Positions 8,048 through 41,722 are shown, numbered from the stretch's first letter. The stretch is DNA of 64,000 nt from Candidatus Omnitrophota bacterium (GCA_015233195.1 JADFYE010000010.1:9869-73868), one strand, 5' to 3'. Translations and numbers: made by a program. The notes: generated from the sequence alone by a model not told the origin.

Positions 8048-8076
8048 ATAATATATTATATATAAGCCATTGTCAA
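8048..8076 (-). promoter_or_regulatory. sigma70-like promoter for rpsP
   Basis: Minus strand TTGACA (8076-8071), 17-nt spacer, TATTAT (8053-8048). Confidence 0.55.
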
Positions 8077-10100: not shown

Positions 10101-10104
10101 TAAA

Positions 10105-26490: not shown

Positions 26491-27222
26491 TTATTTTAAA
26501 AAAATCTGACTAAATGCCATCACACTTATTGCCGCAGTTTCTACTCTTAATATATTAGCACCTAAAGTAACTGGAATGCATCCTTTTTGAAATGCCAAAG
26601 CATATTCTTCAGGCGTGAAATCCCCTTCTGGTCCGATAAAAAAAGAAAATGCGTTTTTATTCGACTGATTCAATAACACATCTTTTAACAGCTTACGCTC
26701 TCCCATTAAACTTGGAATAATAACAGTTGATTTATCAACCAGGACATCCAACGCCTTATCAAATTTTGTAAACTCGTGTATTTTCGGGAAATAAGCTCTT
26801 TGGCATTGCTTGCAAGCATTCAGCGCAACCGTCTTAAACCTGTCAACTTTATGACCGCCTGCGTATTTAACCCGTCCGAATTCAGTTCTTTGGGTCAATA
26901 AAGGCACGATCTCACTCACTCCCAGCTCAGTAGCTTTTTCAACGATTAATTCAAATTTACTATTCTTCGGAATAGCGCATGCCAATATCAAACGCGGCAA
27001 AGATTCAGATATTTGTTCGAAGTTATGCGTAAATATTTTTATTAATTTAGGCGAAATCTCCTCAATAACCCCTTGTGCTTGCAAACCTTTTCCGTTAAAT
27101 ACAGAAACAATGTCGCCTGATTTTACCCGCAAGACATTCTTTAAATGATGAACTTCATCAACATCAGTAATAACACACTGTTTTGAGTTTAATATTAGAC
27201 CAGGAAAGTACGCGCGCATCAT
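26491..27222 (-). CDS. rsmE: 16S rRNA (uracil1498-N3)-methyltransferase
   Basis: 'HH..NVLR.K.GD' PUA-like N-terminus, 'KFE.IVEKATELGV' and 'GPEGDFT..E', with C-terminal 'LRVETAAI'. Confidence 0.88.
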   Translation of the reverse strand: MMRAYFPGLILNSKQCVITDVDEVHHLKNVLRVKSGDIVSVFNGKGLQAQGVIEEISPKLIKIFTHNFEQISESLPRLILACAIPKNSKFELIVEKATELGVSEIVPLLTQRTEFGRVKYAGGHKVDRFKTVALNACKQCQRAYFPKIHEFTKFDKALDVLVDKSTVIIPSLMGERKLLKDVLLNQSNKNAFSFFIGPEGDFTPEEYALAFQKGCIPVTLGANILRVETAAISVMAFSQIFLK

Positions 27223-27809
27223 GAACAGCTCTGCTGCGGAGGACGGATAATGGTTGTATATTCAACTTGCGGATTTTGCATGGGATTAACTGGCAAAGTA
27301 GGACTTTGTCTTAACTGAAAATATAATTTTACATTACAATTTGTCACCGAGGTATAACGAAAATCAGCCACAACAACTTGTGAAGATATAATTTCTGAAT
27401 TAGCAGCACAAGACATTGGCGGCGCATAAATAGCATTGCCAACCCAACGACAAATACGATATCTTGGATAATCATGCCTATAATATATCCAAGATGTAAC
27501 ACTTGCAGGAGGAGGTGAGACAGATCTAAAAGCTATCCAAAGACTGACACCTGGAGTAGCCAGATCCTCAATAGCTGATCTAATCGCAGAATCCGTAACA
27601 TTCCCATCAGCATTGGAAACATCCGCACTTATACGAGCCGCAATACTCATTGCTTCCATATGCAGAAGCGCGGAACGCTGGGAGGTTGAACCAAAACGTT
27701 TTATAGTCAGGTCAAAACCAACAATACCGAGCATAACTATGCCGATAAGAACAGTCGCAATCAAAAGTTCAGCTAAAGTTATTGCGTGATTATTTAAAAT
27801 TTTTTTCAT
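27219..27809 (-). CDS. minor pseudopilin-like protein (PilW/GspJ-like)
   Basis: N-terminal 'AITLAELLIATVLIGIV' prepilin-like helix with conserved Glu. Paralog of 27836..28390. Confidence 0.6.
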   Translation of the reverse strand: MKKILNNHAITLAELLIATVLIGIVMLGIVGFDLTIKRFGSTSQRSALLHMEAMSIAARISADVSNADGNVTDSAIRSAIEDLATPGVSLWIAFRSVSPPPASVTSWIYYRHDYPRYRICRWVGNAIYAPPMSCAANSEIISSQVVVADFRYTSVTNCNVKLYFQLRQSPTLPVNPMQNPQVEYTTIIRPPQQSCS

Positions 27810-27835
27810 TATTATAAATCCTAATATTTTTTTAA

Positions 27836-28390
27836 CTACATACTAGTCAATACGGAATTCAAACCTCCAGATAAAGTATACCTGGGATTTTTCATCGGGT
27901 CAAAGGGTTGCGAAATATCATATAACACTGATATTTTAATTTGCAGACGAGTTCCAGATGCCTGCGTTACCTGAAAAGTTTCCACGTTACTTAAAAGCTC
28001 CTCATTTCCTGAAGAACAAGTTCCCGTTTTATCTGACACACATGAAAACAGCGAGTTATTCAATATATAATACGTAATCCAAGTATCGTCGCTATAATCC
28101 GTAGTCTGCGGATTGTTCCGATCTTCCCGCATGGTAATGCGCTGTCCTCCGCCACTCAAAATTATAGCTGGATCTGTAGCATTACCAATAGCTTGATAAA
28201 TATTATGGGTCAAATTAGCAAAAACACTGTTTAACCTGATATTAACAATTGCAGTTTTTTGATTATTAGATTGAAACCGTTGGATGGTAAGGCTGAATCC
28301 TATGACCCCCAGTAAAATTACACTAACTAATATAGACGCAGTCATAAGTTCAACTAAAGTCAGACCGTATTTTCCGCGCAAATATTTCAT
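27836..28390 (-). CDS. minor pseudopilin-like protein (PilW/GspJ-like)
   Basis: 'KYGLTLVELMTASILVSVIL' prepilin-type N-terminus. Shares 'F.LTI.RF.S' and 'P.NPM.NP' with its neighbour. Confidence 0.65.
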   Translation of the reverse strand: MKYLRGKYGLTLVELMTASILVSVILLGVIGFSLTIQRFQSNNQKTAIVNIRLNSVFANLTHNIYQAIGNATDPAIILSGGGQRITMREDRNNPQTTDYSDDTWITYYILNNSLFSCVSDKTGTCSSGNEELLSNVETFQVTQASGTRLQIKISVLYDISQPFDPMKNPRYTLSGGLNSVLTSM

Positions 28391-28743
28391 TAATCAACCC
28401 AATTAACCGTCATGTTGATATCACGGGCAGAAGTTGCTGCATTAGCAGTAATAGTATACCTTACTGTAAAATTACCTATGGTATTTGTATAATAACCAGG
28501 ATTTAATGGACTTGTTGGATTTTCCGCAGCACACCAAGTACTAGCATCAACTGACGAACGTAATTTTGATAAAACATCTTTTGCCACATAAATCGCTTCA
28601 ATTTCTTTAGACGATGTTGTAGCTTTTGGACGAAGCATGGATACTGTACTGATAATACCTACAGCAGCGACTAAAAAAATCACAGCAGTGATAATTATCT
28701 CTACCATTGAAGCCACGCCGTCTTTTTTTAAAATCTTTAACAT
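28390..28743 (-). CDS. minor pseudopilin-like protein (PilV/GspI-like)
   Basis: 'GVASMVEIIITAVIFLVAAVGI' hydrophobic N-terminal helix with Glu. 117 aa. Confidence 0.5.
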   Translation of the reverse strand: MLKILKKDGVASMVEIIITAVIFLVAAVGIISTVSMLRPKATTSSKEIEAIYVAKDVLSKLRSSVDASTWCAAENPTSPLNPGYYTNTIGNFTVRYTITANAATSARDINMTVNWVD

Positions 28744-28764
28744 AACATTTTTAATCCAACCATA

Positions 28765-29190
28765 TTAATCCGGACAATTTGTTCCTGCACACGACGGATT
28801 ACGTGTTGCAAGTAAAGGCGAAGAATCAGTAACTTGAGTTTGATCCAACGTAAAATCACAAACACCAGCCGTAGTATACTTATAAGTTGCGTTATAAGTG
28901 GTTGTACTCGTATAATTATACATAAAATCCATATTTTTTATGCTTACTAAATTAATACTCATTCCTGGATTAACCACTGTCAAATTTCCACTACTATTAT
29001 AATAACGCCCCTGCTCTGCTCTCCAAATAGTATTTGCCCCGCTAAAAGCAATTAGCTGTGCTCTGGCTTGCCTGCACGCATTGTTACGTGTAGTTTTTTG
29101 ATATCCTGGAATAGAGATTGAAGCCAATATCCCAATGATCACGACTACAATCATTAATTCCATTAAAGTAAAACCAGATTTTTTTGTCAT
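28765..29190 (-). CDS. type IV pilin / GspG-like pseudopilin
   Basis: Canonical 'KSGFTLMELMIVVVIIGILASISIPGY' prepilin N-terminus (G/F cleavage site, Glu+5). Confidence 0.85.
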   Translation of the reverse strand: MTKKSGFTLMELMIVVVIIGILASISIPGYQKTTRNNACRQARAQLIAFSGANTIWRAEQGRYYNSSGNLTVVNPGMSINLVSIKNMDFMYNYTSTTTYNATYKYTTAGVCDFTLDQTQVTDSSPLLATRNPSCAGTNCPD

Positions 29191-29204
29191 TAAATCACTT
29201 ACTT

Positions 29205-29242
29205 TTTTTAAAAAAAGGGAGGGTAAAACCCTCCCTTTTTAA
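29205..29242 (-). terminator. Rho-independent terminator after the major pilin gene
   Basis: aaaagggaggg-(t)aaaa-ccctccctttt hairpin with T/A runs on both sides (bidirectional). Confidence 0.75.
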
Positions 29243-29252
29243 TTAAGCAGTA

Positions 29253-29669
29253 TTATTTTACACCAACAAATTTACTTGAGCCAAATCTCGTAACACCTGT
29301 TGAAGAAACAGTAAGAATAACTTTATCACCAGCGGTTCCACCATCAATAGTATTACGGGTTGCTGTAATAGTCATAGCACCAGCAGTATCCAAACCTGTA
29401 ACTGAATAGGTAAAATGCGTACCACCTGTTTTATCTGGATCTGCCATATCTAATTCGGATGTTGAACAAGATGCAGAAGCTCCTGTAGATAAAATACATC
29501 TTCCCAGAGAATCACGCAGAGAACCCATTACGTTCAAAGATTCAGAAGCGCGTGAAAATTCAACTGTACCAAACAACTTAGGTAATGCCAAACTTGCTAA
29601 AACACCTAAAATAATTACTACAATGATAATTTCCAATAATGTAAACCCTTTTTTACTATTAACCTTCAT
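29253..29669 (-). CDS. type IV pilin-like protein (probable major subunit)
   Basis: 'KKGFTLLEIIIVVIILGVLASLALPK'. Own promoter and terminator. Strong AAAGGAG SD. Confidence 0.85.
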   Translation of the reverse strand: MKVNSKKGFTLLEIIIVVIILGVLASLALPKLFGTVEFSRASESLNVMGSLRDSLGRCILSTGASASCSTSELDMADPDKTGGTHFTYSVTGLDTAGAMTITATRNTIDGGTAGDKVILTVSSTGVTRFGSSKFVGVK

Positions 29670-29714
29670 TTTAAAACTCCTTTCTTAATCTGCTTAATAA
29701 TTACTCCTATTTCA

Positions 29715-29743
29715 AATATACCATATCCCTTATACTCAGTCAA
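29715..29743 (-). promoter_or_regulatory. sigma70-like promoter for the major pilin gene
   Basis: Minus strand TTGACT (29743-29738), 17 nt, TATATT (29720-29715). Confidence 0.55.
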
Positions 29744-29770
29744 AAGCGAAAACATTTATTTCTTTCTTAT

Positions 29771-31006
29771 CTATATCCCTCCTGTTGACATTTTAAATAA
29801 TGGCAAGAACATAGCTATAACTATAGTACCAATTACAGCACCCATAAATACTATCATAGCCGGTTCAATTAGAGTCGAAACCCGTTTAATATAAGTTTCT
29901 ACCAATTCCTGATAATACTTTGAAACATGCTTCAACATTTTACTTAACTCTCCGGTTTCCTCTCCTACACTTATCAACTGCACGCACATAGCAGGAAAGA
30001 AACCACTTTTTTCCATAGGCGTTACTAACAATTCACCTTTTTTTACACCTTCTTTTATATTACGCACGATCTTCCCGCAAGTAATATTATCTACTAATTT
30101 TTCCGCAATATCCAAAGCTGCTAAAATCGGTACACCAGCCTCAATAAGAATCGCCATTTGTCCGGCAAAACGCTCTACAACAATCAAACGGAATATCTGA
30201 CCAATACTTGGAACTTTAAATAAAAATCTTTCAAACATTTCTTTGCCTTTATGCGTTTTTATAGACTGCAGAAATAAAAATATTGAAATAACTATTGCTC
30301 CAACGATATAAAAAAAATAATTACGCACAAACGCGAATGTCGCCAATAGTATTACAGTAATCAAAGGCAATTTAATACTCATCTGATTAAAAATCCCTTC
30401 AAAACGCGGTCCCACAAACAAAGCAAAAAAAGCAATAGCGCCGCAAGCCACGAAGAACAATAAAGCCGGATAAATAACGCTAGAAATAACTGTGCTACGG
30501 AACGCGTTCTGCTGGTCAAGATAAAAAGTCAATTTATTCAAAACCATTGGTAAAGTACCTGAAGCTTCACCAACCTCGACTAAACTAACCCAGAACTGGT
30601 TAAATGCTCGAGGATGTTTTGACAAAGCCTGACTCAAAGAAAGACCTTTTTCAACATCATTCTTAACTTTAGCTACTATATTCGATAAACGTTCGCTCTC
30701 AACTTGTCCGCTGATAACTTCCAAACTCCGCATCAAAGAAACCCCTGCCTCAAGCATGGTAGCTAACTGCCGAGCAAAAACTATCACGTCCTGAAGTTTA
30801 ATTTTTTTATGTTTATGCTTTATAGTAACCCGGTGTACTGGTCCGCCTCTTTTCTGCTGGGCTTGCATTGAAAATTCAGTGATACTTATAACAAAATAAC
30901 CCTGACGCTGCAGAAGGTCTGAAGCTGCTATACGATCAGACGCGTCAATAAAATTCTCGATTGACCGTCCATTTTTATCTTTGGCTATAAAACTAAAACG
31001 CGGCAA
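29771..31006 (-). CDS. type II secretion / type IV pilus platform protein (GspF/PilC family)
   Basis: 411 aa with two T2SSF repeats ('FARQLATMLEAGVSL', 'FAGQMAILIEAGVPIL') and 3 TM segments. Confidence 0.9.
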   Translation of the reverse strand: MPRFSFIAKDKNGRSIENFIDASDRIAASDLLQRQGYFVISITEFSMQAQQKRGGPVHRVTIKHKHKKIKLQDVIVFARQLATMLEAGVSLMRSLEVISGQVESERLSNIVAKVKNDVEKGLSLSQALSKHPRAFNQFWVSLVEVGEASGTLPMVLNKLTFYLDQQNAFRSTVISSVIYPALLFFVACGAIAFFALFVGPRFEGIFNQMSIKLPLITVILLATFAFVRNYFFYIVGAIVISIFLFLQSIKTHKGKEMFERFLFKVPSIGQIFRLIVVERFAGQMAILIEAGVPILAALDIAEKLVDNITCGKIVRNIKEGVKKGELLVTPMEKSGFFPAMCVQLISVGEETGELSKMLKHVSKYYQELVETYIKRVSTLIEPAMIVFMGAVIGTIVIAMFLPLFKMSTGGI

Positions 31007-31017
31007 TTTTAAACTCC

Positions 31018-32760
31018 TTAATCAACGCTTACGCAAACATTTCCGATTTCTTCAAAACTGGTAATACCTTTTTCAACTAATTTTAATCCTGAATCAAACA
31101 AAGTATCCATACCATTTTTACGCGCGGTATCTTTTATTTTCTGATATCCAGCGTTCTGGGCGATCAAAGACCGGATCTCTTCATTTACTTCAAGCACTTC
31201 ACCAATAACAATCCGACCTTTATATCCGGTATGATTACATAACTGGCAGCCTTTAGCTTTATATATCAAATCACTTTTGAATTTTATATTACCATGTGCG
31301 AGCGCGTCCGGCTCATACGCTTCTTTGCAATTCTGACACAGCCGTTTTGCCAGACGCTGAGCTAATATCATTACCATAGACGGAGTTAACAAATAATTCG
31401 GCACACCAATATCAATCAAACGGGAAATCGCAGACGGAGCATCATTAGTGTGGAGCGTACTCATGACAAAGTGACCAGTCAAAGCCGCGCGTACGCAGAT
31501 CTGCGCGGTTTCTAAATCCCGGGTTTCCCCGACCATCATGATATCCGGATCCTGACGCAAAAAAGCTTTCAAAGCTGTGGCAAAAGTCAAACCAATATCC
31601 GGCTTAACATTAACCTGATTTATCCCCTCTAATTTATACTCGACAGGATCTTCAACTGTAATAATATTTTTCCGAGGATCTCTGGTCTCATTAACTGCCG
31701 CGTATAATGTGGTGGATTTCCCGCTGCCAGTAGGTCCAGTTACAAAAAATAAACCATAAGGCATTTTCAACGCCTTTTTCATTATATCAACCTGCTTAGT
31801 ATCAAATCCTAACCCGGATAAAGCTAATGGGACTGAGCCTTTATCCAGAATACGCATTACCACTTTCTCACCCCAAATCGTCGGAATAGTCGAAACGCGA
31901 AGATCAACATTACGGTCTTCCAATTTCGCGGAAATCGCGCCATCTTGAGGCAAACGTTTTTCCGCTATATCCAACTTAGCCAAAATTTTGATCCTGGATA
32001 CTATGGGAAGTAGCAGATGCGGTGCTGGCGGCGGAAGATCTACCAAACTTCCGTCAATGCGGTAGCGCAATTTAATTTTATTTTCAAATGGTTCAATATG
32101 GATATCACTAGCTTTTTCATCTATAGCCTGACGGATAATAAGATCAACTAATTTTATGACCGGAGCTTCCCCTGCTTTGGCAATAAGCTTATCCATGCTC
32201 AATTCAGCAGAAGCAGTTTTAAATACTACTACGCCTTCATCAGAATCATCAGAATAAGAACTCTCAACCGCCCGGGTCAACATAGTTTGGTCAGAATTTA
32301 AATTAGCCGGAGATCCGTGATACAGCAGATTAATAGCTTTTTGGATTGAGCTCTTAGTAGCAATGACCAGATTCAGTTCACATCCAGTCATACGTTTTAA
32401 ATTATCAATCAAGAGTAAATCTAAAGGATCCGCAACAGCACACGTTAATGAATGCATATGTTTAGAAAGCGGCAGCGCGTCATTCTTACGGGCAAAACTT
32501 TCAGAAATTAATTTTTTTAAATCTTCTTTTTGGTCTTCAGAAGTAGTCAATAACTGCGGATTTTCAGACGAGTAAAACGGTATAGCTAACTGCGTACCAA
32601 TAGCTTGGGTCATGTTCTCTTCTGTAACAAAACCTAACCTGACCAAAGTTTCACCAATACGAGTTTTCTCTACTTTTTGAACCTGAATGGCTTTATCTAA
32701 CTGCTCCTGCGTGATAAAGCCCTGCTTTATCAAAATCTCGCCTAATTTTAAACGCATCAT
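31018..32760 (-). CDS. GspE/PilB-family assembly ATPase with N-terminal MshEN domain
   Basis: Walker A 'GPTGSGKSTT', 'DPDIMMVGETRD' and His box 'TLHTNDA'. Tetracysteine 'CQNC...CQLC'. N-terminal tandem 24-aa MshEN motifs. Confidence 0.92.
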   Translation of the reverse strand: MMRLKLGEILIKQGFITQEQLDKAIQVQKVEKTRIGETLVRLGFVTEENMTQAIGTQLAIPFYSSENPQLLTTSEDQKEDLKKLISESFARKNDALPLSKHMHSLTCAVADPLDLLLIDNLKRMTGCELNLVIATKSSIQKAINLLYHGSPANLNSDQTMLTRAVESSYSDDSDEGVVVFKTASAELSMDKLIAKAGEAPVIKLVDLIIRQAIDEKASDIHIEPFENKIKLRYRIDGSLVDLPPPAPHLLLPIVSRIKILAKLDIAEKRLPQDGAISAKLEDRNVDLRVSTIPTIWGEKVVMRILDKGSVPLALSGLGFDTKQVDIMKKALKMPYGLFFVTGPTGSGKSTTLYAAVNETRDPRKNIITVEDPVEYKLEGINQVNVKPDIGLTFATALKAFLRQDPDIMMVGETRDLETAQICVRAALTGHFVMSTLHTNDAPSAISRLIDIGVPNYLLTPSMVMILAQRLAKRLCQNCKEAYEPDALAHGNIKFKSDLIYKAKGCQLCNHTGYKGRIVIGEVLEVNEEIRSLIAQNAGYQKIKDTARKNGMDTLFDSGLKLVEKGITSFEEIGNVCVSVD

Positions 32761-34304
32761 TTTTGATCGCCTAATTTCTCAACCATTGAAAGTTCATGAT
32801 TAATATAATCCATTTGACTTGAAGGAATATCCTGTTCCCTTACTAATTGATTATATTTTACACCCTGAAGCGCAACATTACTATCTTTCATAATATGCGG
32901 AGTCAAAAATATTACCAATTCCCGCTCCTGAACTTTTTCATCTTTATGCCTAAATGCAGCGCCAACTATTGGCAGTTTGGATAATACCGGCACATTAGTC
33001 TTAGTTTTCTTTGTATCTTTTCGCAGTAACCCGCCTAAAACAATAGTATCTCCATCTTTAACTCTTAAAGTTGATTTTGTACCACGTTCTTCCGGATCTC
33101 TAAATTCAAAAATTTGATTAGCTTGCCCTCCAACAGAAGTAGTTAAAGTATTAGGAATGGTCTGAACTACCCGAGGACGTATTGACATAGTTATCTCATT
33201 TAAATCAAGATTAACTTGCGGTGTAACTCTTAACGAAACTCCGGTTTCATACCGTTCAGCAGTAACTGAGGTAAGAGTTCCACTGCTACCACTGCCAGAA
33301 GAACTACTATTTGAATTTACACCAATAGATTCTTGAGTAGTAATTTTAATTTCAGCAGTTTCATTATTTAAAGTCATTATCCTTGGTCTGGCTAAAGTTT
33401 GAGTATCAGAACAAGTACGTAAAAAATTTATAGCAGCGCCTAGTCCATCAAAATTTTGAACGCCGGATGTAAACCGCGGCGTTACATAAGTAAATTTATC
33501 TCCATCTTGAGAAAACGGCCACGGCATTTGTTGATTAGCGCCATGAAATGTCATAGGCGTATCTCCCCACTTAACCCCCAACAAATCTGAGTTAGATTTA
33601 GAAATATCTAATATCTCAGCTTCAATTAATAACTGGGATACCGGCACATCCAATTTTGCAATGGTCTGATCAATTAACGGAAATTGTGACGGCAAATCCG
33701 AAACTATTAAACTGTTAGTCCGAGGATCCTGCGCTATAGAACCATCCTTGGTCAGCATGGATTTAATAATGGTTACGATATCCGAATTTTCTTTTGCGCC
33801 AGGGCTGGAATCGCTGTCAGAAGAACTGCTGCTTGAACTACCGGTCCCATCATCTTTCTTTATTTCATAAGTCTTATTTATTTTTGAAGCGGGAATAATC
33901 GCGTTCTTTAATGTATAAACTTTAGTAATAACAGATTTATCTGGTTTAGGAACAGTTTGAACAATAAAAATATTACTGCCAGGTTTTAATTCATACGTTA
34001 ACCCATTAGCAGCTAAAATCCGTTCCAACGCCTGTTCAACTGGAACTTTATCCAGAAAAATATCCACAGTTTTTTCAGCAATAGTAGAATCTGCTATAAA
34101 ATTCATACCTGATTGCTGAGAAAAAACTTTCAGCACGTCATTCAGATTTGCTTTCTTAAAATCCATAGAAATGGTTTTAGACGAGTCAAACTCCATCAAA
34201 CGCTTAATGTCTTCGTCCACTTCGTAGTATGACGCTTTAGCAAACGACGACCACATCGCAACAATCGCGATCGCAAATAAAAATGTTCTTTTATTGAATA
34301 TCAT
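32757..34304 (-). CDS. secretin (GspD/PilQ family)
   Basis: Signal peptide, N-domains and secretin C-domain: 'RPRIMTLNNETAEI', 'GDTIVLGGLL', 'VPVLSKLPIVGAAFR' and 'ELVIFLTPHI'. Confidence 0.9.
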   Translation of the reverse strand: MIFNKRTFLFAIAIVAMWSSFAKASYYEVDEDIKRLMEFDSSKTISMDFKKANLNDVLKVFSQQSGMNFIADSTIAEKTVDIFLDKVPVEQALERILAANGLTYELKPGSNIFIVQTVPKPDKSVITKVYTLKNAIIPASKINKTYEIKKDDGTGSSSSSSSDSDSSPGAKENSDIVTIIKSMLTKDGSIAQDPRTNSLIVSDLPSQFPLIDQTIAKLDVPVSQLLIEAEILDISKSNSDLLGVKWGDTPMTFHGANQQMPWPFSQDGDKFTYVTPRFTSGVQNFDGLGAAINFLRTCSDTQTLARPRIMTLNNETAEIKITTQESIGVNSNSSSSGSGSSGTLTSVTAERYETGVSLRVTPQVNLDLNEITMSIRPRVVQTIPNTLTTSVGGQANQIFEFRDPEERGTKSTLRVKDGDTIVLGGLLRKDTKKTKTNVPVLSKLPIVGAAFRHKDEKVQERELVIFLTPHIMKDSNVALQGVKYNQLVREQDIPSSQMDYINHELSMVEKLGDQK

Positions 34305-34370
34305 ATTCTCTCCTGTTTTTAAAGTGCCCCCCGGCCCTTATTCACTTAAAAAACTATTAAACCAAAAAAT

Positions 34371-34850
34371 TTATTTAATTATATGGTTTTCGCCCTGGAA
34401 AGAGACTTCTACTCCCTCCCGGGTTATAGATAATATTTTAATTGTCGTGTCTTGCGCCTGTTCTTGATTCCCGCCTTCAGGCGCTTGATTATTACTATCA
34501 AATTTAAACGGTAAAATATCGCCTTCTTTATAAACTTGGTCATCAATTATCGCTTGCGGCATGTCAGAATTCCAAACCAGACCTTTTACTTTAAAACTCG
34601 GCAAACTTAATTTTTTAGGCGGCACTTCTGGCTGCTCAGTTGTCGTCTGATTTTGCGAATTATTATTATTATTCGCAACCGGCTCTCCTACTTGCCTGTT
34701 TTGTTGATAATTAGACTCCTGCTTTGTAGGCTCAGGCAAAGGCATTTGTATTTCAAATGGATCCCGTTCAAACTCGGTTTCTTCAGCATAAACCACGCTG
34801 AAAAAAACCAGCATAAACACCAATATTATCGAAAAGATATATTTATTCAT
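34371..34850 (-). CDS. PilP-like periplasmic protein
   Basis: Signal peptide, 'RDPF' motif, N/Q-rich linker and a C-terminal beta domain ('VKGLVWNSDMPQAIIDDQVYKEGD'). Sits between PilO-like and secretin genes. Confidence 0.5.
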   Translation of the reverse strand: MNKYIFSIILVFMLVFFSVVYAEETEFERDPFEIQMPLPEPTKQESNYQQNRQVGEPVANNNNNSQNQTTTEQPEVPPKKLSLPSFKVKGLVWNSDMPQAIIDDQVYKEGDILPFKFDSNNQAPEGGNQEQAQDTTIKILSITREGVEVSFQGENHIIK

Positions 34851-35436
34851 TTTTCAATACAATGGTTTTTATTGAAACTTGCGCCCGGATAAATGACGAA
34901 TTTTCTTTAGACTTATTTTCATAATTAACCGGCATCACGTTGATATCATCTACCATTATTGCGAATTCAGTATTTTCTAACCCTTTAATAAACTCTCCTA
35001 AATTTTTATATCTCGCAGCCGTAACCTCAATCCGCATAGAATAAAAATAATGATAGGTACTGTCAGCTTTTTGACCAGGAGACAAACTGCTTATCTCAAT
35101 ACCATTTTTTAACGCAATACTGGATATAAGCGCGGTAAGCTGGTCAGAATCACACGCTTTAGGAAAACTTCCCTTAATATCACTTTGTTTTTTTTCGCTG
35201 CTCTTAATCTGATTTACCAAATCCAGCTTAGACTTTCCCTCTGATATCTTTACCTTTATTCCCTGGATCTCTTGTTTGGGTCCAGTACTAAAATTTATAC
35301 AAATAATAATCGTAGCTATAGTCACCAAAACATTAACTATAATATCCGGGCGTCGTCTAACAAATTCCTTTAGAAACAACGGATCCATATCTTTAAAATC
35401 ATCCAATTGAATCTGTTTTAATTGTTTTAAGTCCAT
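34843..35436 (-). CDS. PilO-like pilus assembly protein
   Basis: Single TM, then coiled-coil and a ferredoxin-like C-terminus. Position in the pilMNOPQ order. Confidence 0.5.
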   Translation of the reverse strand: MDLKQLKQIQLDDFKDMDPLFLKEFVRRRPDIIVNVLVTIATIIICINFSTGPKQEIQGIKVKISEGKSKLDLVNQIKSSEKKQSDIKGSFPKACDSDQLTALISSIALKNGIEISSLSPGQKADSTYHYFYSMRIEVTAARYKNLGEFIKGLENTEFAIMVDDINVMPVNYENKSKENSSFIRAQVSIKTIVLKNE

Positions 35437-35440
35437 AAGT

Positions 35441-36985
35441 TTATCTGAGCTTTACAGAAAAAGCTGTTACTTTATGTCCATTAATATCTCGTGAAGTCAT
35501 ATCTTCCCTATATATGTCTTCTGGTTTATAAAAATTCTTTAGTTTAGAATTTTTCCTTAAATTATCCAAAAATTCCGCGATCAAATTTATCTGATTTGAA
35601 GCAACTTCATCATACGCATATCCGCTCAACGCTATATTTGGTGATTTTTTTTTCGAAGCGGAATCTTTTGAATCAAAAGAATTATTTTGCGAATAAGCAA
35701 CAGAAAAATTAGTAAGCCAAATTCCTTTAGCTGGTAAAGCTGCAGGTACAGCATTTATAAAATACGCGACTTTGCTTTTTGAAGGAACCAGCTCTAAACC
35801 TTTAACCTTTTCTTCAATAGTCGTTTTCTTCGTCTTAAGATCTTCAATGCTACTGCTATTATAAAGACCTAATTTTCCACTAATACTTTTAAATTCAGCT
35901 CGTGCCTGCTCTAACGGTATTTGCTGCGCCAGTCTAACTATAAAACAAATTACTACCGCGATCACAATAAAAATTCCCATCAAAATATAATTAGGCGGTT
36001 TAATAGCATTAAAATCAAATTTTACAACATCTTTTTTGGTCTCTATTTCTTTTATGGCTAGATTAAACGCGGCTGGCAATACCACATCCAAACAACTGCC
36101 CATAGCTTTTAAAAACGCGGTATTATCGACGATCTGATTTTCAATTAAAGTCCGGGATTTACACTCAGTTACCGCTATACCCAAATCCGTAGTTAACGCA
36201 GTCTGCAACTGCGCTTCTTCAGCCGACGATATAAGCACTGCTTCTTTTACGGTTATGCTGTTTTCTTGACGAGCAAAATAATCCAGAGATACCCTGGTTT
36301 CATTAATAAATTTCTGGGTATAATCTCCTTTATCCGGAGTGCCTGCAGCAACTTGAAAATCGCGCACAAATAAAGGCAGCCCTTTATCTACTACAGTAAT
36401 TTTTCCGCCGGTACCTTCATGTTCTATCAATGCCACGGTCTTATCCATGGTGATTTTATTTTTAAACGCCAAGATTTTCAGCAAACTATTTACCGACGGT
36501 TCGGTAATATTTATATTTATCCCGATCTTATGGAACAGGTTTTCATATTTCTGCAAAGTTGAATAACGGATGGCTACGAATATTACTTGAATTTTTTTCA
36601 TGCCCCCGAGATTTATCGGGTTCCAATGATAAACATTCCGTAATTCTTCGATCCGGAAAGGAATATATTTATTTACCTCGAATTGAATAACCCCTTCCAA
36701 TTCATTCGGCTGCATCCAAGGCACAATAAAAGACCGGAAAATAATATCTTTTCCCGGTAAAGACAAATTAGCTTCTTTGGTTGTAATATGATGTTCAGCT
36801 AAAGCGGTGTTGATTTTATTGGCAAGATTATTTGACGGTGCTAAAAATTGATTAGTCTCAAACTCATTAAAATCGTCTTGAGATAATTCAATAGAAAATG
36901 ACTGTTCCAATCTTCCGTCGAAAACTTCAGCAAAATAGACAGAATCATGGCTAAAATATACGCCTAGTTGTTTTTTCTCCCCCAT
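35441..36985 (-). CDS. PilM-PilN-like fusion (actin-like ATPase domain + TM + periplasmic domain)
   Basis: The N-terminal ~330 aa resembles PilM. TM 'YILMGIFIVIAVVICFIV' at about residue 335. C-terminal periplasmic part. Confidence 0.6.
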   Translation of the reverse strand: MGEKKQLGVYFSHDSVYFAEVFDGRLEQSFSIELSQDDFNEFETNQFLAPSNNLANKINTALAEHHITTKEANLSLPGKDIIFRSFIVPWMQPNELEGVIQFEVNKYIPFRIEELRNVYHWNPINLGGMKKIQVIFVAIRYSTLQKYENLFHKIGININITEPSVNSLLKILAFKNKITMDKTVALIEHEGTGGKITVVDKGLPLFVRDFQVAAGTPDKGDYTQKFINETRVSLDYFARQENSITVKEAVLISSAEEAQLQTALTTDLGIAVTECKSRTLIENQIVDNTAFLKAMGSCLDVVLPAAFNLAIKEIETKKDVVKFDFNAIKPPNYILMGIFIVIAVVICFIVRLAQQIPLEQARAEFKSISGKLGLYNSSSIEDLKTKKTTIEEKVKGLELVPSKSKVAYFINAVPAALPAKGIWLTNFSVAYSQNNSFDSKDSASKKKSPNIALSGYAYDEVASNQINLIAEFLDNLRKNSKLKNFYKPEDIYREDMTSRDINGHKVTAFSVKLR

Positions 36986-36998
36986 AGTTCATTCCCCG

Positions 36999-37032
36999 AA
37001 TTTCAAACCTAAATATATATAAGTTTGAAATT
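36999..37032. promoter_or_regulatory. 10-bp perfect inverted repeat upstream of pilMN-like gene
   Basis: aatttcaaac-N14-gtttgaaatt, 14 nt upstream of the ATG at 36985. Confidence 0.35.
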
Positions 37033-37111
37033 GCAATTTTATTGTATGTGAAAGAATAAGTTACGTCTATAGTATTTTAAAAATTTTTACTTATGTTTTT
37101 ATTTGCCAAGT

Positions 37112-37516
37112 TTAATTCGCATCACAAGTTACTGATAATGGACAAGTGCCGTCTATTGCACTAGCCCCGACACATGGTGAACCAACTGCTGGTGGCGCCT
37201 GCTTCTGCACCATAATGTTATACGTCAAGTTATCCATAGTAACTGTATAAGCTTTGCAGTAATCAAATCCACTAGGACAAGGGCTTGGCGATGTAGCAGG
37301 AAGACCTTTATTTGCATACTCAGACAAAAATGAATTCAAAATCCCTTCGCTTAATATCTCACACTTTAGTTTTTTGGTCTCTTCTTTACTTACCACACTT
37401 TGACTTACATTCATACTTATAATACTTACTACTAATATCATCATTACCGCAATAATAATCACTACAGTAATCAACACAATCCCTGACTCTTTTCCAATTT
37501 TTCTGAACATAGCCAC
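37112..37516 (-). CDS. PilX/GspK-N-like pseudopilin candidate, Cys-rich C-terminus
   Basis: 'GIVLITVVIIIAVMMILVVSIISMNV' N-terminal helix. Six Cys in the C-terminal half. Confidence 0.4.
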   Translation of the reverse strand: MAMFRKIGKESGIVLITVVIIIAVMMILVVSIISMNVSQSVVSKEETKKLKCEILSEGILNSFLSEYANKGLPATSPSPCPSGFDYCKAYTVTMDNLTYNIMVQKQAPPAVGSPCVGASAIDGTCPLSVTCDAN

Positions 37517-37523
37517 ACTCCTA

Positions 37524-37754
37524 TTAAGCCCGAACGTTAATGTAACATTCGCATTGCGGACAACGGGTTAAGGTTTCTGTGTTTCTTTCCCGTATAAAAA
37601 ATACCTGACCACAATATTCACATTGACAAAAATCCCGCACCACCTTCGTATATTGCCTCTTTCTTAAAGTATAGGATAGAGCAAAAATAAATACAAGCAG
37701 TAATATGAAAAATATCAGCCCGGAAATAGCCCAGTCTATCGAAACGCTTATCAT
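37524..37754 (-). CDS. small membrane-anchored zinc-ribbon protein
   Basis: One TM, then 'CQCEYCG...CPQCEC' (CxxC x2). Confidence 0.45.
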   Translation of the reverse strand: MISVSIDWAISGLIFFILLLVFIFALSYTLRKRQYTKVVRDFCQCEYCGQVFFIRERNTETLTRCPQCECYINVRA

Positions 37755-38164
37755 CGCGTATCCAAACGTAAAGGTTTATATGTTTCAAATGTTATGCCGC
37801 TTATATCCGCCTTATTTATATTATCCGCATTATCAACTCCCAGCTTTTTCCCCTTAAACAAAGTTACGGCAGAAACTACTGTTCCAGACTGCGCCACTGA
37901 CTTTTTTTTAAGCGCAGGCAGCTTATCCAGCGGCGCAGGTTGAACAAAAGCAGAAGACTTAGAAATCACCTCAATATCTTCTACCCCTTTAGAAGTTTTT
38001 ATTACTGTATTCTTGGAATCTAAAAACCCTCCTATTGCTATTAAAGTAGGCTGGGCGTCCTGGACTTTATATGGAATATTAATTGAAAATAGACTTGAAA
38101 ATAAAATATGCGTGATCAATGCTATGACCAAAGCGCTATAAATAAAATTTTTTGTTCTTATCAT
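37751..38164 (-). CDS. membrane-anchored protein in the TonB/TolA position
   Basis: N-terminal TM. Follows the ExbB/ExbD-like genes with 4-nt coupling. No recognisable TonB C-terminal motif. Confidence 0.3.
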   Translation of the reverse strand: MIRTKNFIYSALVIALITHILFSSLFSINIPYKVQDAQPTLIAIGGFLDSKNTVIKTSKGVEDIEVISKSSAFVQPAPLDKLPALKKKSVAQSGTVVSAVTLFKGKKLGVDNADNINKADISGITFETYKPLRLDTR

Positions 38165-38167
38165 ATT

Positions 38168-38569
38168 TTATTTTGTCGTAGCCACATTTATCTTATCAAT
38201 ACCTGCCCTACGGCATATATCCCAAATATCCATTATTCTGCCAGCAGATGCGCGACGGTCTGACCTAATCAAAAATTGATTCTCTCCCCATGATTTACTT
38301 TTTAATTCTTTCTCAAGTTCTTTTACCGTCGTGATTTTATTATTAAAATAAATCACATTCTCTCCGGTAATTGTTATAACCATTCCCATGCCACTAACTA
38401 CCTGACTAGTAACTGTCTTAGGAAGCTTGACTGTAATCGTTGTATCAACTGTAAAAAAAGAAAAAATATAAATTAGTACCGCTGTTAAAAAAAGAACATT
38501 TACCAGCGGGATGAGCAGAACCGAATGCATATCCGACGAATAATTTAATAATCTGTAATTTTTAAACAT
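38168..38569 (-). CDS. ExbD/TolR-family protein
   Basis: 133 aa with a single TM ('LIPLVNVLFLTAVLIYIF'). Periplasmic 'IRSDRRASAGRIMDIWDICRRAG' is typical of ExbD. Confidence 0.8.
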   Translation of the reverse strand: MFKNYRLLNYSSDMHSVLLIPLVNVLFLTAVLIYIFSFFTVDTTITVKLPKTVTSQVVSGMGMVITITGENVIYFNNKITTVKELEKELKSKSWGENQFLIRSDRRASAGRIMDIWDICRRAGIDKINVATTK

Positions 38570-39194
38570 TGTGTTTTTCCATTAACTCAACTGCTGAGCG
38601 ATCCATCTCATTAATAAACTGCGTTATCCTGTACTCACAATAATTATAAGCAATAAAAGCCAAAATACCGACCAACATGCCAGCTACTGTAGTTAAAATC
38701 GCGGACCACACTCCAAAAGCAAGATCTCCAGTAGTGAATGGCTGTAAAGCTTTAGTCTTTACTTCAATCGTACGAAAAATTACTGCCATACCAGTAGCTG
38801 TTCCTAATAATCCGAGCAATGGACTTATATACGTTATGCTAGAAAGAAAAATAAGATTGATTTTAAACTCCGGAATCAGCAAATCGCCCGCGTTTTTCAT
38901 GCTTTCTTTTATTTCAATTCTCGACGCGCTGAACTTAATTAATCCGGCTTTAATAATCTTAGCTGAAGGAGAACTACTGCCTTCACATATCGCGTAAGCT
39001 TCCTTAAGTTTATTGAGACTAATCAAATCAAATACCCGGTCTTTTAATAACTGCACGTCGGCTCTTATTGAATTAAAATACATCAGTCTTTCAATAAAAA
39101 TCGTCAAAGTTATCACCGAACATAATATGATCGGGATCAAAATCGGTCCGCCGGAAATTATCAATTGAAAAAAATTCATAGCACTATTTTCCAT
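38562..39194 (-). CDS. MotA/TolQ/ExbB-family proton channel
   Basis: 3 TM segments. 'ISPLLGLLGTATGM' and 'AILTTVAGMLVGI' signatures. Confidence 0.85.
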   Translation of the reverse strand: MENSAMNFFQLIISGGPILIPIILCSVITLTIFIERLMYFNSIRADVQLLKDRVFDLISLNKLKEAYAICEGSSSPSAKIIKAGLIKFSASRIEIKESMKNAGDLLIPEFKINLIFLSSITYISPLLGLLGTATGMAVIFRTIEVKTKALQPFTTGDLAFGVWSAILTTVAGMLVGILAFIAYNYCEYRITQFINEMDRSAVELMEKHNV

Positions 39195-41676
39195 TCGTTG
39201 TAATTACTTTATTATTAATCCAATCCAATCGCTCTTGCGCGAATTTTTTCTCCTCTACATTATAACTAAGCACTTTCTGATAAATCTGTTTTGCTTTAAT
39301 CCACTCATCCTGGTCTTCAAATATTCTCGCAACTCTAAGGTACGCCTTAACTGCCCATAAAGTCTGATCAATATAAAGATATGGAATCTTCAAATATTCG
39401 TCGAGAGCCTTATCCGTGTTATTCATCAACTCATAATCGTCTGCCAGACTAAACCTGATCTCAGCGTCAGGCGTGTGGCTCTGTCCTTTTACTGATTTCA
39501 AAGCATTTTCATAATATTGTGCTGCCTTTTGCTGATCATTCTGGCTCTTATATATTTCCGCGATTTTAAATAACGCATCTTTTGCAAAACTTGGGACTTT
39601 ATCCAGCATAGTCTTATACGTAGCAATCGCTGCATCAGGATCCATTTTTTGGGATAGAATTTCAGCTATCGCGCTCTTAGCTTTAACAAATATTTCCGGA
39701 GAAACTGTCTCAGAAATATTTTTAAACGACTCAATCGCTGCCTTATAGTCATTATTAGCTTTATATGCCTGACCTAAAGAATAATATACTTCGACCAGCC
39801 TCTTATTACCGGGGAAACTTTTAATGAATTCATTATAATGACTGATCGCGTAATTATAATCTCCGGCTTCCAAATAATGGTCGCCCAGCCAAATTAAAGC
39901 TTCTTGTCCAGCGTCGGAATCATGATATTTTGTTGCAACATTCCTAAATCTTTTCAAAGCTTCATTAATATTTCCGTTTTTATATAAACACTTTGCGATA
40001 TGCAATTCTGAATTTTTTACAATATTAGAATCACTCGGATACTCCTTTATTATTTTCTGAAAGACTGCTGCAGCTTCCGTGTATTTAGCTAAATTAAAAT
40101 TTGATAATCCTAATATATAATTCGCTTCTGAACGAAACTCGCTGCTATCCGTAGATTCTTTAAGAAAAGCACTCGCCTGCTCCATAGCGGTCTGCCATTG
40201 TTCCTGTTTAAAATATGCGACTGCAAGATAATATTTAGCGTCTTTTAAATATTTACTTTTTGGAAAGTTGGCTTGTAAAGTCTGTAAAGATAAAGTAGCA
40301 GCTTCGATCTTATTTTGTTTTAATAGGGTTACTGCCTGACGATATTGAACATAATCCGTATATGGACCAGCCGGAAATTCACCTAATATCTTGTCATAAA
40401 CTTCTACTGCTTGGTCCAACTGTCCGGCTTCCTGATACGCGTCTCCAATCTGGGTCATAGCGCTGATACGAATCGTATTATTATCAGTCTTACTTTGAAT
40501 GGTCTCAAAAGTATGAATTGAAAGATCCAGCGCCCCAGCTTTCATGTAACTCCACCCTAACGCGAAATAAGCTTTCTCCACAATATCAGGATAATCAGCG
40601 GACGCTTCATATTTATTTATTATCGCCCGGTAATCTTTTATTGCTGCATCATATTTCTGTTCTTGATAATAAGTGTTGCCTCTGCCTAATAATGCTTCGG
40701 GTACTCTCGGGCTATCTTGATATTTATTGACTATCTCAGAATAAGCGGACAAAGCCTTATCCACATTATTAGTCTCAGAATACAAAGATGCCAATCCCAA
40801 ATAAACATCATCTGCAGGTATACTCTTACTCTGCGCAAAACTTAAAGCATCGTTAAAATTTTTTTCTGAAAGATCATATTTCCCCAACTTTAAATAACAC
40901 CAACCCAAGCTTACCTTAGACGCAAAAATAGTCTTATTATCATACGATAAGCTCGCGGATTTTGCATAATACCCTACCGCATCCAACGGCTGGTTAAGAT
41001 AATAAAATGATTCTCCAATATAAAAATATGCCTCAGGATGTTTGACTGAATCCGGATAAGTATTTATATATTTTATGAAATGTTCCGTAGTTTTTTCATA
41101 ATTTTTTTGGGTATATAATATCTCACCTATTTTAAAAGCAGCGTCTTCAGCTAACTGATTGTCTGGAAATTTTTTTAAAATTTTTTCAAATATATCCTGA
41201 GCCTTCGTATAATCATTCTGAACAAAATATGTCCAGCCTAGAGAATAATAAGCCTGCGGCGCGTAAATCGAATCCGGATACGCGTCAATAACTTGTTTAT
41301 ACATTTCTTCAGCCTGTTTATAGTCCGAACCTTTTAAATACGTCTCACCCAGCCAGAATAAAGTAGCATCTTTAAATTGGGAGTATTGACTGGTTTCTTT
41401 AAAATAATTGAATGCCTTTAAATATTCACTTTTGAAAAAATAACATTGTCCTAATAAAAGTTTTGACTCAACTGACTTCGTGGTCTGAGGATAGTCCCGC
41501 ATTAATTGTTCGATATACCGGATGGATATATCATAGAACCCGTCGTCAAAAGCCTTTTGCGCTACTAAAAATAATTCTTCATCGCCTTCGGCAAAGGCGT
41601 CACGCGCGGTAAAACTAACTGCGGTTAAAACGACAAAAATAAAAACCAATATTATTCTTAAAAACTTCTTATTCAT
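39184..41676 (-). CDS. large secreted TPR protein (YbgF/BamD-type repeats)
   Basis: Signal peptide, then repeated '..YP(D/K)S....EA.Y.LG..Y' units. The track start 41691 is the GTG inside the repeat. ATG 41676 ('MNKKFLRI') is preferred. Confidence 0.75.
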   Translation of the reverse strand: MNKKFLRIILVFIFVVLTAVSFTARDAFAEGDEELFLVAQKAFDDGFYDISIRYIEQLMRDYPQTTKSVESKLLLGQCYFFKSEYLKAFNYFKETSQYSQFKDATLFWLGETYLKGSDYKQAEEMYKQVIDAYPDSIYAPQAYYSLGWTYFVQNDYTKAQDIFEKILKKFPDNQLAEDAAFKIGEILYTQKNYEKTTEHFIKYINTYPDSVKHPEAYFYIGESFYYLNQPLDAVGYYAKSASLSYDNKTIFASKVSLGWCYLKLGKYDLSEKNFNDALSFAQSKSIPADDVYLGLASLYSETNNVDKALSAYSEIVNKYQDSPRVPEALLGRGNTYYQEQKYDAAIKDYRAIINKYEASADYPDIVEKAYFALGWSYMKAGALDLSIHTFETIQSKTDNNTIRISAMTQIGDAYQEAGQLDQAVEVYDKILGEFPAGPYTDYVQYRQAVTLLKQNKIEAATLSLQTLQANFPKSKYLKDAKYYLAVAYFKQEQWQTAMEQASAFLKESTDSSEFRSEANYILGLSNFNLAKYTEAAAVFQKIIKEYPSDSNIVKNSELHIAKCLYKNGNINEALKRFRNVATKYHDSDAGQEALIWLGDHYLEAGDYNYAISHYNEFIKSFPGNKRLVEVYYSLGQAYKANNDYKAAIESFKNISETVSPEIFVKAKSAIAEILSQKMDPDAAIATYKTMLDKVPSFAKDALFKIAEIYKSQNDQQKAAQYYENALKSVKGQSHTPDAEIRFSLADDYELMNNTDKALDEYLKIPYLYIDQTLWAVKAYLRVARIFEDQDEWIKAKQIYQKVLSYNVEEKKFAQERLDWINNKVITTNGK

Positions 41677-41683
41677 ATAACAA

Positions 41684-41722
41684 CCCCTCACCCTAACCCT
41701 CTCCCCATAGGCTGGAGAGGGG
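41684..41722. repeat. 38-nt CU/GA hairpin repeat
   Basis: cccctcaccctaaccctctccccataggctggagagggg. On the minus strand it ends GAGGGG, 7 nt before the TPR gene ATG. Confidence 0.9.

Follow-up and report, generated by a model that had tools for sequence, protein, structure and literature searches.

Why should genes resembling those of the Ton and Tol envelope systems lie directly upstream of the genes for a secretin-based pilus machine, and do the products of the two sets work as one? The question is raised by a stretch of DNA from an uncultured organism, Candidatus Omnitrophota bacterium (GCA_015233195.1 JADFYE010000010.1:9869-73868; the whole 64 000 nucleotides are referred to here as the window), for which an initial annotation had suggested that a stator of the Exb/Tol type, driven by the proton motive force (PMF), was functionally coupled to the adjacent pilus machine. 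That annotation had listed 16 co-directional open reading frames (ORFs); their coordinates, gaps and overlaps stand, but the count does not, there being 17 genes, all on the minus strand between 27219 and 41691. In order of transcription, these encode a secreted protein with tetratricopeptide repeats (TPR), ExbB-like, ExbD-like, TonB-like and zinc-ribbon proteins, a minor pilin, PilM-N, PilO, PilP, the secretin, PilB, PilC and five pilins (Table 1).

The reading that we favour, with about half of our confidence, is that two systems, separable from each other, have been adjacent from ancestral times onwards, and that in this genome the Ton/Tol module is not a motor but survives as a static complex. 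The first system would be an envelope module of the Ton/Tol type (ExbB, ExbD, a TonB-like anchor and the zinc-ribbon protein; 'the module' below), preceded by the large secreted TPR protein; the second would be a machine like that of type IVa pili, with PilM-N, PilO and PilP, a secretin, a PilB regulated by cyclic di-GMP (c-di-GMP), PilC, a presumably strongly expressed major pilin and minor pilins. The two would have lain side by side since early in the evolution of the Omnitrophota, inside a long, conserved, co-directional stretch of housekeeping genes.

The case against a motor begins with the residues on which such complexes depend. ExbD, TolR and MotB each have a protonatable aspartate in their single transmembrane (TM) helix (D25, D23 and D32, respectively), and the glutamate in the third TM helix of the partner protein (E176 of ExbB, E173 of TolQ) is also important. 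In the ExbD-like protein of the window, HMMER alignment to 6tyi_Y ('liplvNvlf' against 'vtpfiDvml') places Asn22 in the TM helix at the position of E. coli D25, and alignment of the ExbB-like protein to TolQ (8odt) and ExbB (5sv0) places a serine at the position of the glutamate. On inspection of the sequences, neither these two proteins nor the TonB-like protein showed a further carboxylate within a TM helix. In E. coli, ExbD D25N is inactive although the complex still assembles, and 18 of the 19 possible substitutions of D25 abolish activity, glutamate being the exception (bioRxiv 10.1101/2022.09.26.509584; PMC11658791).

The asparagine is not a sequencing oddity, because ExbD proteins lacking the aspartate recur in all three sets of relatives considered. 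Among the window protein and 53 orthologues linked to PilM-PilN fusion (PilMN) genes, 32 have Asp, 21 Asn and one Thr (n = 54); contigs found in a metagenome scan seeded with ExbD (using a narrow alignment, a first one having been too diverse) gave 68 Asp, seven Asn and one Ser (n = 76); and 130 full-length proteins among the 150 best cluster representatives comprised 62 Asp, 50 Asn, seven Ser, five Gly and two Thr, with His, Ala, Trp and Glu occurring once each and one sequence gapped, so that 68 of the 130 are not Asp. The share of relatives whose ExbD is without the aspartate can be put at about 20-50%. Asn-type ExbD proteins are mostly paired with an ExbB that has Gln, Ser or Ala at the glutamate site, and Asp-type proteins mostly with Glu. 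To our knowledge, the membrane aspartate is near-universal in ExbD-like proteins otherwise.

The TonB-like protein also seems to be incomplete. The SxxxH helix is a signature of TonB and TolA, and the family to which the window protein belongs has SxxxH as its consensus, with a near-invariant His; in the window protein, this has become AxxxH (His19 is kept, the Ser replaced). About 105 residues into the periplasm the chain stops, and neither Pfam nor PDB profiles matched it, family searches included. Deep-branching relatives are longer (204-233 aa), with a predicted beta-beta-alpha-beta C-terminal domain (AlphaFold2, pLDDT c. 75, the rest of the model being mostly of low confidence). The longer relatives have weak TonB_C/TonB_2 matches (E 0.0035 and 0.023), and hhalign related the long form to the corresponding protein of locus L086, which bears a Pfam TonB_C domain (E 0.004); Foldseek with the model of the long form returned only noise, and an hhalign comparison with an E. 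coli TonB sequence entered by hand was not significant. Taken together, this is suggestive but not conclusive evidence for a C-terminal domain of the TonB type in the relatives, the window protein then being a truncated TonB/TolA-like anchor without it.

With Asn in ExbD, Ser in ExbB and no C-terminal domain on the TonB-like protein, the PMF-driven stator of the initial annotation is not supported for this genome, whose module could not do proton-driven work in the way that known stators do. That such a stator should nevertheless power or gate the secretin-pilus machine, perhaps in place of a missing PilT, could draw on the adjacency of the genes, on the membership of both proteins in the ExbB and ExbD families, and on the absence of PilD, PilT, TolB, Pal and any TonB-dependent receptor from the window, as the annotation had noted and as Pfam scans of all ORFs of at least 100 aa bore out. 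We nevertheless regard it as very improbable: a proton-driven pilus motor is unlikely here because the module lacks the acidic residues that such motors need, the D25N form is inactive in E. coli, the TonB-like protein is without the domain that normally touches outer-membrane partners, and constraint on ExbB and ExbD is relaxed in the Asn lineages.

Such relaxation might instead mean that the module is a functionless relic, heading for the deletion already seen in other Omnitrophota lineages. The series from Asp, through Asn with faster evolution, to clean deletion would fit this, as would the truncated TonB-like protein and the variety of residues (Asn, Ser, Gly, Thr, His, Ala) at the ExbD site of the representatives. 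At matched divergence of PilMN, ATPase, platform protein and secretin, ExbB/ExbD distances were 0.59-0.69 between Asn lineages, compared with 0.38-0.51 between Asp lineages (a ratio of c. 1.4-1.5, from pairs that are not phylogenetically independent); the TPR protein showed no rate shift between the two kinds of lineage. Against decay, all four module ORFs are intact in the window and in every sampled Asn lineage, motifs such as PLLGLLGT and ADRRASxGR are retained, and the forms without the aspartate are both old and numerous within the clade. Furthermore, dN/dS was 0.083 in the sole Asn-Asn pair that was sufficiently close, a value from one pair with saturated dS; to judge from that pair, lineages with Asp-less ExbD appear to remain under purifying selection. 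We therefore think a relic improbable. Since the module genes are intact and constrained, the reading of two systems with a non-motor module has the latter persisting as a static complex of the inner membrane and periplasm, which might resemble the assembled but PMF-unresponsive state of E. coli ExbD-D25N.

What, then, does the adjacency to pilus genes signify? A genome scan seeded with PilM-N gave 80 loci from 521 relatives, nearly all of them metagenome-assembled genomes of Omnitrophota, with PilMN identities from 66% down to 25%; gene orders were read from iterated profile searches of the window proteins against six-frame ORFs of the loci. The usual order is uvrA-TPR-ExbB-ExbD-TonB-like-zinc ribbon-minor pilin-PilMN-PilO-PilP-secretin-ATPase-platform-pilins-rsmE, and 47 of the 64 PilMN-seeded loci with enough upstream DNA have ExbB and ExbD, while in 14 the TPR gene is followed directly by the minor pilin gene and three are otherwise rearranged. 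The neighbourhood, whose conservation in relatives had been put forward as bearing on coupling, is thus conserved whichever side the search starts from, but this does not discriminate coupling from inheritance: a gene for a Lys-rich protein, the aspartate dehydrogenase gene, panC and an HPPK gene, which all precede uvrA, recur in 40-41 of the 44 loci that extend far enough, and the median spacing between uvrA and the TPR gene (24 nt) is as tight as that within the cluster. Because unrelated housekeeping neighbours are conserved equally well, adjacency does not show functional coupling, and it may well reflect inherited gene order rather than energy coupling.

The module can also be lost, and it can stand alone. 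Exactly its four genes are missing from the 14 loci just mentioned, leaving a gap of 196-787 nt between the TPR and minor pilin genes. In the PilMN tree, these loci form two or three subclades nested among module-bearing relatives, and so the module seems to have been present ancestrally and lost repeatedly, at least two to three times. The secretin N0 domain and N-terminus have no segment specific to module-bearing loci and no change where the module has been lost. A difference in PilO length (203 compared with 174 aa) was considered as a footprint of module loss and set aside; it looks like a property of the clade, whose module-bearing members have equally short proteins. Conversely, the module occurs without pilus genes in at least five loci (L084, L085, L086, L149 and L161). 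In L084, the order is uvrA-TPR-ExbB-ExbD-193 aa-zinc ribbon-DUF2582-minor pilin, followed by unrelated genes; in L085, it is TPR-ExbB-ExbD-268 aa-uvrB; and in L086, it is TPR-486 aa-ExbB-ExbD-TonB_C protein-zinc ribbon-DUF2582. More distant ExbB homologues (c. 35% identity) adjoin genes for FtsEX, an M23 peptidase and CtpB, or lie in unrelated contexts. We note separately that in L085 (L085:4433-11086) the module is followed by uvrB, whereas the Omnitrophota module is preceded by uvrA, a recurrent and unexplained link with nucleotide excision repair.

The most substantial alternative takes its cue from Pseudomonas aeruginosa, in which mutants in pocA, pocB and tonB3 lose or mislocalize their type IVa pili; a contact of TonB3 with PilQ's N0 domain has been proposed, the secretin N0 domain resembling the signalling domains of TonB-dependent receptors (PMC5285504). 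There is a further precedent in the TonB-like ExeB, which binds the periplasmic domain of its secretin, the GspA-GspB complex aiding secretin assembly through the cell wall (PMC4098917). By analogy with PocAB-TonB3 or GspAB, the TPR, ExbB, ExbD, TonB-like and zinc-ribbon proteins would assemble, anchor or position the secretin and the alignment complex, being PMF-driven in Asp lineages, whereas in Asn lineages, the present one among them, they would be reduced to a scaffold that does not rotate. Gene order conserved in both directions of scanning would favour this, as would the tight spacing or overlap of the genes from ExbB through the minor pilin, the minor pilin gene that stays with the Exb operon in L084, the STN/N0 domain of the secretin, and a TPR gene that is always beside pilus genes, with no other pilotin-like gene present. 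All eight stand-alone modules are of the Asp type, and every Asn-type module is pilus-adjacent. These points have to be set against the equal synteny of unrelated housekeeping genes, the repeated loss of the module with no change in pilus proteins or N0 domain, and the existence of stand-alone modules. ExbB and ExbD rates also failed to co-vary with those of pilus proteins, but the residual-rate test for co-variation among Exb, TPR and pilus proteins was discarded for want of information, because the uvrA control correlated as strongly as the true pilus partners. We judge an accessory role of this kind possible rather than probable. Its more specific form, in which an ancient accessory touches the secretin or alignment complex and the Asn, Gln and Ser variants are stators locked by mimicry of the protonated state and kept for structural reasons, is somewhat more doubtful still.

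Several of these considerations, and some others, weigh against our favoured reading of two separable systems with a static module. In loci found with ExbD as the seed, PilMN lay downstream in 30 of the 33 that were informative. TolB, Pal and TonB-dependent receptors were seen neither in the window nor on the gene-order maps of c. 165 loci, in which TolB and Pal were not searched for directly, and Pfam lists for contigs with distant homologues or stand-alone modules likewise included no TolB or Pal in the cluster; because none was seen, no alternative outer-membrane partner for the module has been identified. Translation of the minor pilin gene is coupled to that of the zinc-ribbon gene (the gap has a median of 0 nt and measures 7 nt in the window), and its retention with the Exb operon in L084 hints at co-regulation of the module with a pilus component. 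To these may be added the functional precedent of PocAB-TonB3, the putative nature of the scaffold role, which like every functional statement here is inferred from sequence, and the limits already given with the rate comparison and the dN/dS value. The suggestion of one coupled envelope apparatus in place of two adjacent systems has been weakened by the synteny control and by repeated module loss, while its general idea keeps the PocAB-TonB3 precedent.

Comparison with the known systems sharpens these points. PocA-PocB-TonB3 is likewise an ExbB/ExbD/TonB-like trio linked to a type IVa pilus machine whose secretin has an N0 domain; here, in contrast, the trio is contiguous with the pilus genes, the link is genomic only (the comparison being with the published description, PMC5285504), there are additional giant TPR and zinc-ribbon proteins, the TonB-like protein is truncated, and the ExbD Asp and ExbB Glu are missing. 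TolQRA-CpoB offers a different set of resemblances, in that the ExbB-like protein matches TolQ best, the TPR protein has repeats of the CpoB/YbgF type, the anchor helix is of the SxxxH type in the family consensus, and distant ExbB homologues lie beside division genes; it differs in that no TolB or Pal is seen here, the TPR gene, some three times longer, stands at the head of the genes, TolQ and TolR scores are far below cutoff, the equivalent of Asp23 has been lost, and several lineages can do without the module. The type II secretion factors GspA-GspB (ExeA-ExeB) resemble the module in forming an accessory complex of the inner membrane in which one protein is TonB-like and spans the membrane once, but there is here no GspA-type ATPase or peptidoglycan-binding domain, the partners are ExbB- and ExbD-like, and the TonB-like protein has no detectable homology to GspB, the PilP-like protein alone showing weak T2SSB/HR similarity.

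Nor do family assignments make the Exb genes part of an ordinary Tol-Pal or TonB system, as might have been supposed. Pfam places them in the ExbB and ExbD families with strong scores, and it is TolQ that the ExbB-like protein matches best, both by profile hidden Markov models (HMMs) and in the PDB. Among NCBIfam models, too, TolQ is its best match, with 64.6 bits (cutoff 221), ahead of ExbB with 35.8 (cutoff 206), but no TolQ, TolR, ExbB or ExbD equivalogue cutoff is reached, and so these genes cannot be filed as ordinary Tol or Ton components.

Table 1. Genes of the module and pilus cluster in the window, in order of transcription
Gene product	Coordinates	Strand	Features and matches
Secreted TPR protein	39184..41691	-	830 aa from ATG at 41676; ORF reaches GTG at 41691
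ExbB/TolQ-like three-TM protein	38562..39194	-	PF01618 E 9e-20
ExbD/TolR-like protein	38168..38569	-	PF02472 E 7e-17, 62 bits (cutoff 25.4)
Short TonB/TolA-like anchor, 137 aa	37751..38164	-	N-terminal TM helix, conserved FLGSIL motif, C-terminal Y-x-P-L-R
Zinc-ribbon protein, 76 aa	37524..37754	-	N-terminal TM helix and C4 ribbon (CxxC...CxxC)
GspK/PilX-N-like minor pilin-like protein	37112..37516	-	Gly then hydrophobic helix, no Glu at +5
PilM-PilN fusion	35441..36985	-	Actin-like PilM domain, TM helix, PilN-like domain; PF11104, weak PF05137
PilO/GspM-like protein	34843..35436	-	PF04350 E 3e-8, PF10741 E 1e-4
PilP/GspC-HR-like periplasmic protein	34371..34850	-	Signal peptide, RDPF motif
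Secretin	32757..34304	-	STN/N0 (PF07660), N1 (PF03958), PF00263 E 1e-39; no AMIN domain
PilB/GspE-type ATPase	31018..32760	-	PF00437 E 4.5e-135; N-terminal MshEN c-di-GMP domain
PilC/GspF platform	29771..31006	-	PF00482 E 2.6e-54; GspF 361 bits (cutoff 424), PilC 301 bits
Major pilin	29253..29669	-	TIGR02532 above cutoff; best family GspG, 37 bits (cutoff 89)
Second canonical pilin	28765..29190	-	TIGR02532 above cutoff; GspG 46 bits (cutoff 89)
Three divergent minor pilin-like genes	28390-28743, 27836-28390, 27219-27809	-	Marginal or no HMM matches

In the pilus machine itself, the initial identifications of the PilM-PilN fusion, PilO, secretin, ATPase, platform protein and two canonical pilins are supported by HMMs. 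An AlphaFold2 model of PilM-N (pLDDT 83.5) adds the PilM fold, its best Foldseek matches being PilM of P. aeruginosa, Thermus thermophilus and Myxococcus xanthus (E 1e-16 to 1e-18 for type IVa pilus PilM proteins, 1.6e-18 at best, compared with c. 1e-9 for GspL/EpsL). The PilP-like protein is conserved in 75 loci, and its RDPF (or RNPF) motif together with its position is the basis of the name; the family call is weak, its PDB profile matches to the HR domains of OutC, GspC and GspB being non-significant (E c. 1). N_methyl matches are weak for two of the three divergent minor pilins, and family profiles of these recur after the pilin genes in relatives.

Assigning the machine to a type by HMMs, as had been envisaged, gave an ambiguous answer. 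The secretin scored 192 bits with PilQ, 188 with GspD and 147 with MshL, all below cutoff (351 for GspD, 250 for MshL); the ATPase exceeded the cutoff of NF053729 (64.7 bits; cutoff 38) and scored 607 bits with PilB and 586 with GspE (cutoff 630), the PilB score also being below cutoff. The equivalogue models for type II secretion (T2SS) that were scored, GspE, GspF, GspD and GspG, fell short, as did PilB and PilQ; the N-terminal domain of the ATPase is of the MshE type, and the MshL score is below cutoff. The machine shares a PilM fold, PilO, a PilP-like protein, a secretin, a PilB-like ATPase, a platform protein and prepilin-type pilins with type IVa pilus systems, and departs from them in the fusion of PilM with PilN, the lack of an AMIN domain in the secretin, a platform protein and pilins that match GspF and GspG best, the MshE-type c-di-GMP domain of the ATPase, and the lack of PilT and PilD nearby. 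We call it type IVa-like, with some T2SS-like components, in agreement with the published survey of the phylum cited below. Split genes aside, none of the 80 PilMN-seeded loci yielded a further ATPase of the T2SSE family; PilT and PilD may be encoded elsewhere.

The transcriptional organization offers a further view of how the two systems are separated. The 126-nt gap at 36986-37111, between the minor pilin and PilMN genes, is real; on the minus strand, a sequence resembling a promoter (37069-37041) is followed there by a 13-bp hairpin rich in AU (c. 37032-36999; z = -2.67), which lies immediately before the ribosome-binding site of PilMN. In relatives, this is the only consistently large intergenic space of the block (median 359 nt in 66 loci), and the break in synteny in L084 falls exactly there. 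No terminator that would separate the genes between 37112 and 37524 was found, and the promoter and terminator signals noted around the major pilin gene proved to be strong: TTGACT-17-TGnTATATT at 29743-29715, and a 13-bp GC-rich hairpin with a U-run at c. 29240-29205 (z = -3.85). The gap is likely to be a boundary between two transcription units because of its size, its promoter-like site and hairpin, and the L084 break at the same point. The likely units are then one running from the TPR gene (or perhaps from uvrA) through ExbB, ExbD, the TonB-like and zinc-ribbon genes to the minor pilin, one from PilMN to the platform gene, and one for the major pilin, followed by the minor pilins. Just upstream of uvrA, two 10/12 promoter matches (44789-44731, minus strand) come after a very strong terminator hairpin with a 16-bp stem (44834-44798, minus strand); this suggests that a unit starting at uvrA may run into the TPR-Exb genes.

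The TPR protein has a signal peptide ending AFA|E and repeats of the CpoB/YbgF and BamD types, with scores of 268 bits over nine stretches for TIGR02795 (YbgF) and 177 bits for TIGR03302 (YfiO/BamD). Its gene is kept in all relatives, including the 14 loci without ExbB and ExbD. The zinc-ribbon family is conserved in 50 loci, in all of which its gene is the immediate successor of the TonB-like gene (the overlap has a median of 4 nt), and the ribbon of the 76-aa protein is probably cytoplasmic, since a stretch RKRQYTK follows the TM helix. A gene for a winged-helix DUF2582 protein of 67-74 aa, not found in the window, follows the zinc-ribbon or ExbD gene in L058, L060, L078, L084 and L086, and this protein and the zinc-ribbon protein could be a signalling pair. 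As for the next gene, its initial description as PilX-N-like and Cys-rich holds to the extent that features of the family alignment, by themselves, support a weak PilX-N-like call (Pfam PilX_N E 0.88); the richness in Cys is lineage-specific. This GspK/PilX-like gene, which keeps company with the Exb operon in L084, remains beside the genes for the TPR protein and the pilus where the module is missing.

Pilus clusters of this general kind are already known: type IVa pilus gene clusters are reported from most Omnitrophota genomes, as a near-universal trait (Seymour et al., 2023; PMC10066038). The clusters described there have a co-located F-type ATPase, which is absent from the window, and ExbB and TonB are not mentioned. 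Because two papers on Omnitrophota, of which this is one, neither describe the module nor mention ExbB, we regard a TonB-type module beside pilus genes as new, together with the zinc-ribbon and giant TPR partners and the abundance of ExbB and ExbD proteins without carboxylates, although the novelty stays within known kinds of system. A phylum-wide linkage of module and pilus would, if it is more than inherited gene order, provide independent comparative support for an old functional link, and so bear on the question of how ExbBD-TonB homologues (PocAB-TonB3, for example) act on type IV pili. The Asp-less ExbD group, with its matching loss of the ExbB glutamate and apparently still under selection, is a natural experiment on Ton/Tol/Mot complexes that make no use of the proton gradient; and if a Poc-like structural role were the true one, the scaffold function of a Ton/Tol-type complex would be separable from its motor function. 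Type IV pili are thought to mediate the attachment of nanobacteria to their hosts, so the locus may have a bearing on the envelope biology of host-dependent nanobacteria.

Something should be said of the wider setting. The PilM-N, ExbB-like and TonB-like proteins are 100% identical to NCBI proteins from a metagenome-assembled genome. The window has a GC content of c. 0.37 and a GC skew that is negative throughout, and nearly all of its genes are on the minus strand, so that the co-directionality of the cluster carries no weight as evidence. The flanks are housekeeping genes (for arginine, lysine and histidine biosynthesis, recA/recX, alaS, secDF, mfd, surA, and ribosomal proteins S9 and L13), with uvrA directly upstream of the TPR gene and rsmE directly downstream of the last pilin-like gene. 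The start of rsmE, for a 16S rRNA methyltransferase, overlaps the stop of that pilin-like gene by 4 nt (27219-27222), and overlaps in this compact genome can therefore join unrelated functions. Rfam and tRNA scans of the window gave no match; a sigma-54 promoter pattern occurred 22 times against 24 expected, with no meaningful placement; and the PADLOC defence models, including those for Zorya-type stators, matched none of the six upstream proteins of the cluster.

Finally, we draw attention to some other genes in the window. The Lys-rich protein conserved upstream of uvrA (44855-45157, minus strand; 100 aa) has two internal repeats, G[IL]KK[EQ]AGFLYF[VI]DKDGDISCA.M.RGG, as well as a tail rich in AKK; neither Pfam nor NCBIfam offers a match, and the gene is kept in this position in 63 related loci. 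In the HPPK protein (46876-48582, minus strand; 568 aa), the HPPK domain is confined to residues 441-567, and the 440 residues preceding it have no Pfam match at E <=1e-5. The histidine biosynthesis operon includes a gene for a DUF559 endonuclease-like protein (15535-15897, minus strand), and a 499-aa ORF without Pfam or NCBIfam match (13255-14754, minus strand) lies between two His_biosynth genes. There are, in addition, four membrane proteins that are paralogues of one another, each crossing the membrane several times and ending in TPR repeats, encoded at 8073-12144 (minus strand), 23119-24873 (plus strand) and 24878-26485 (minus strand); their genes sit in AT-rich islands (GC 0.28-0.30, compared with c. 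0.37 elsewhere), and one of them is the sole clear plus-strand gene in the window.

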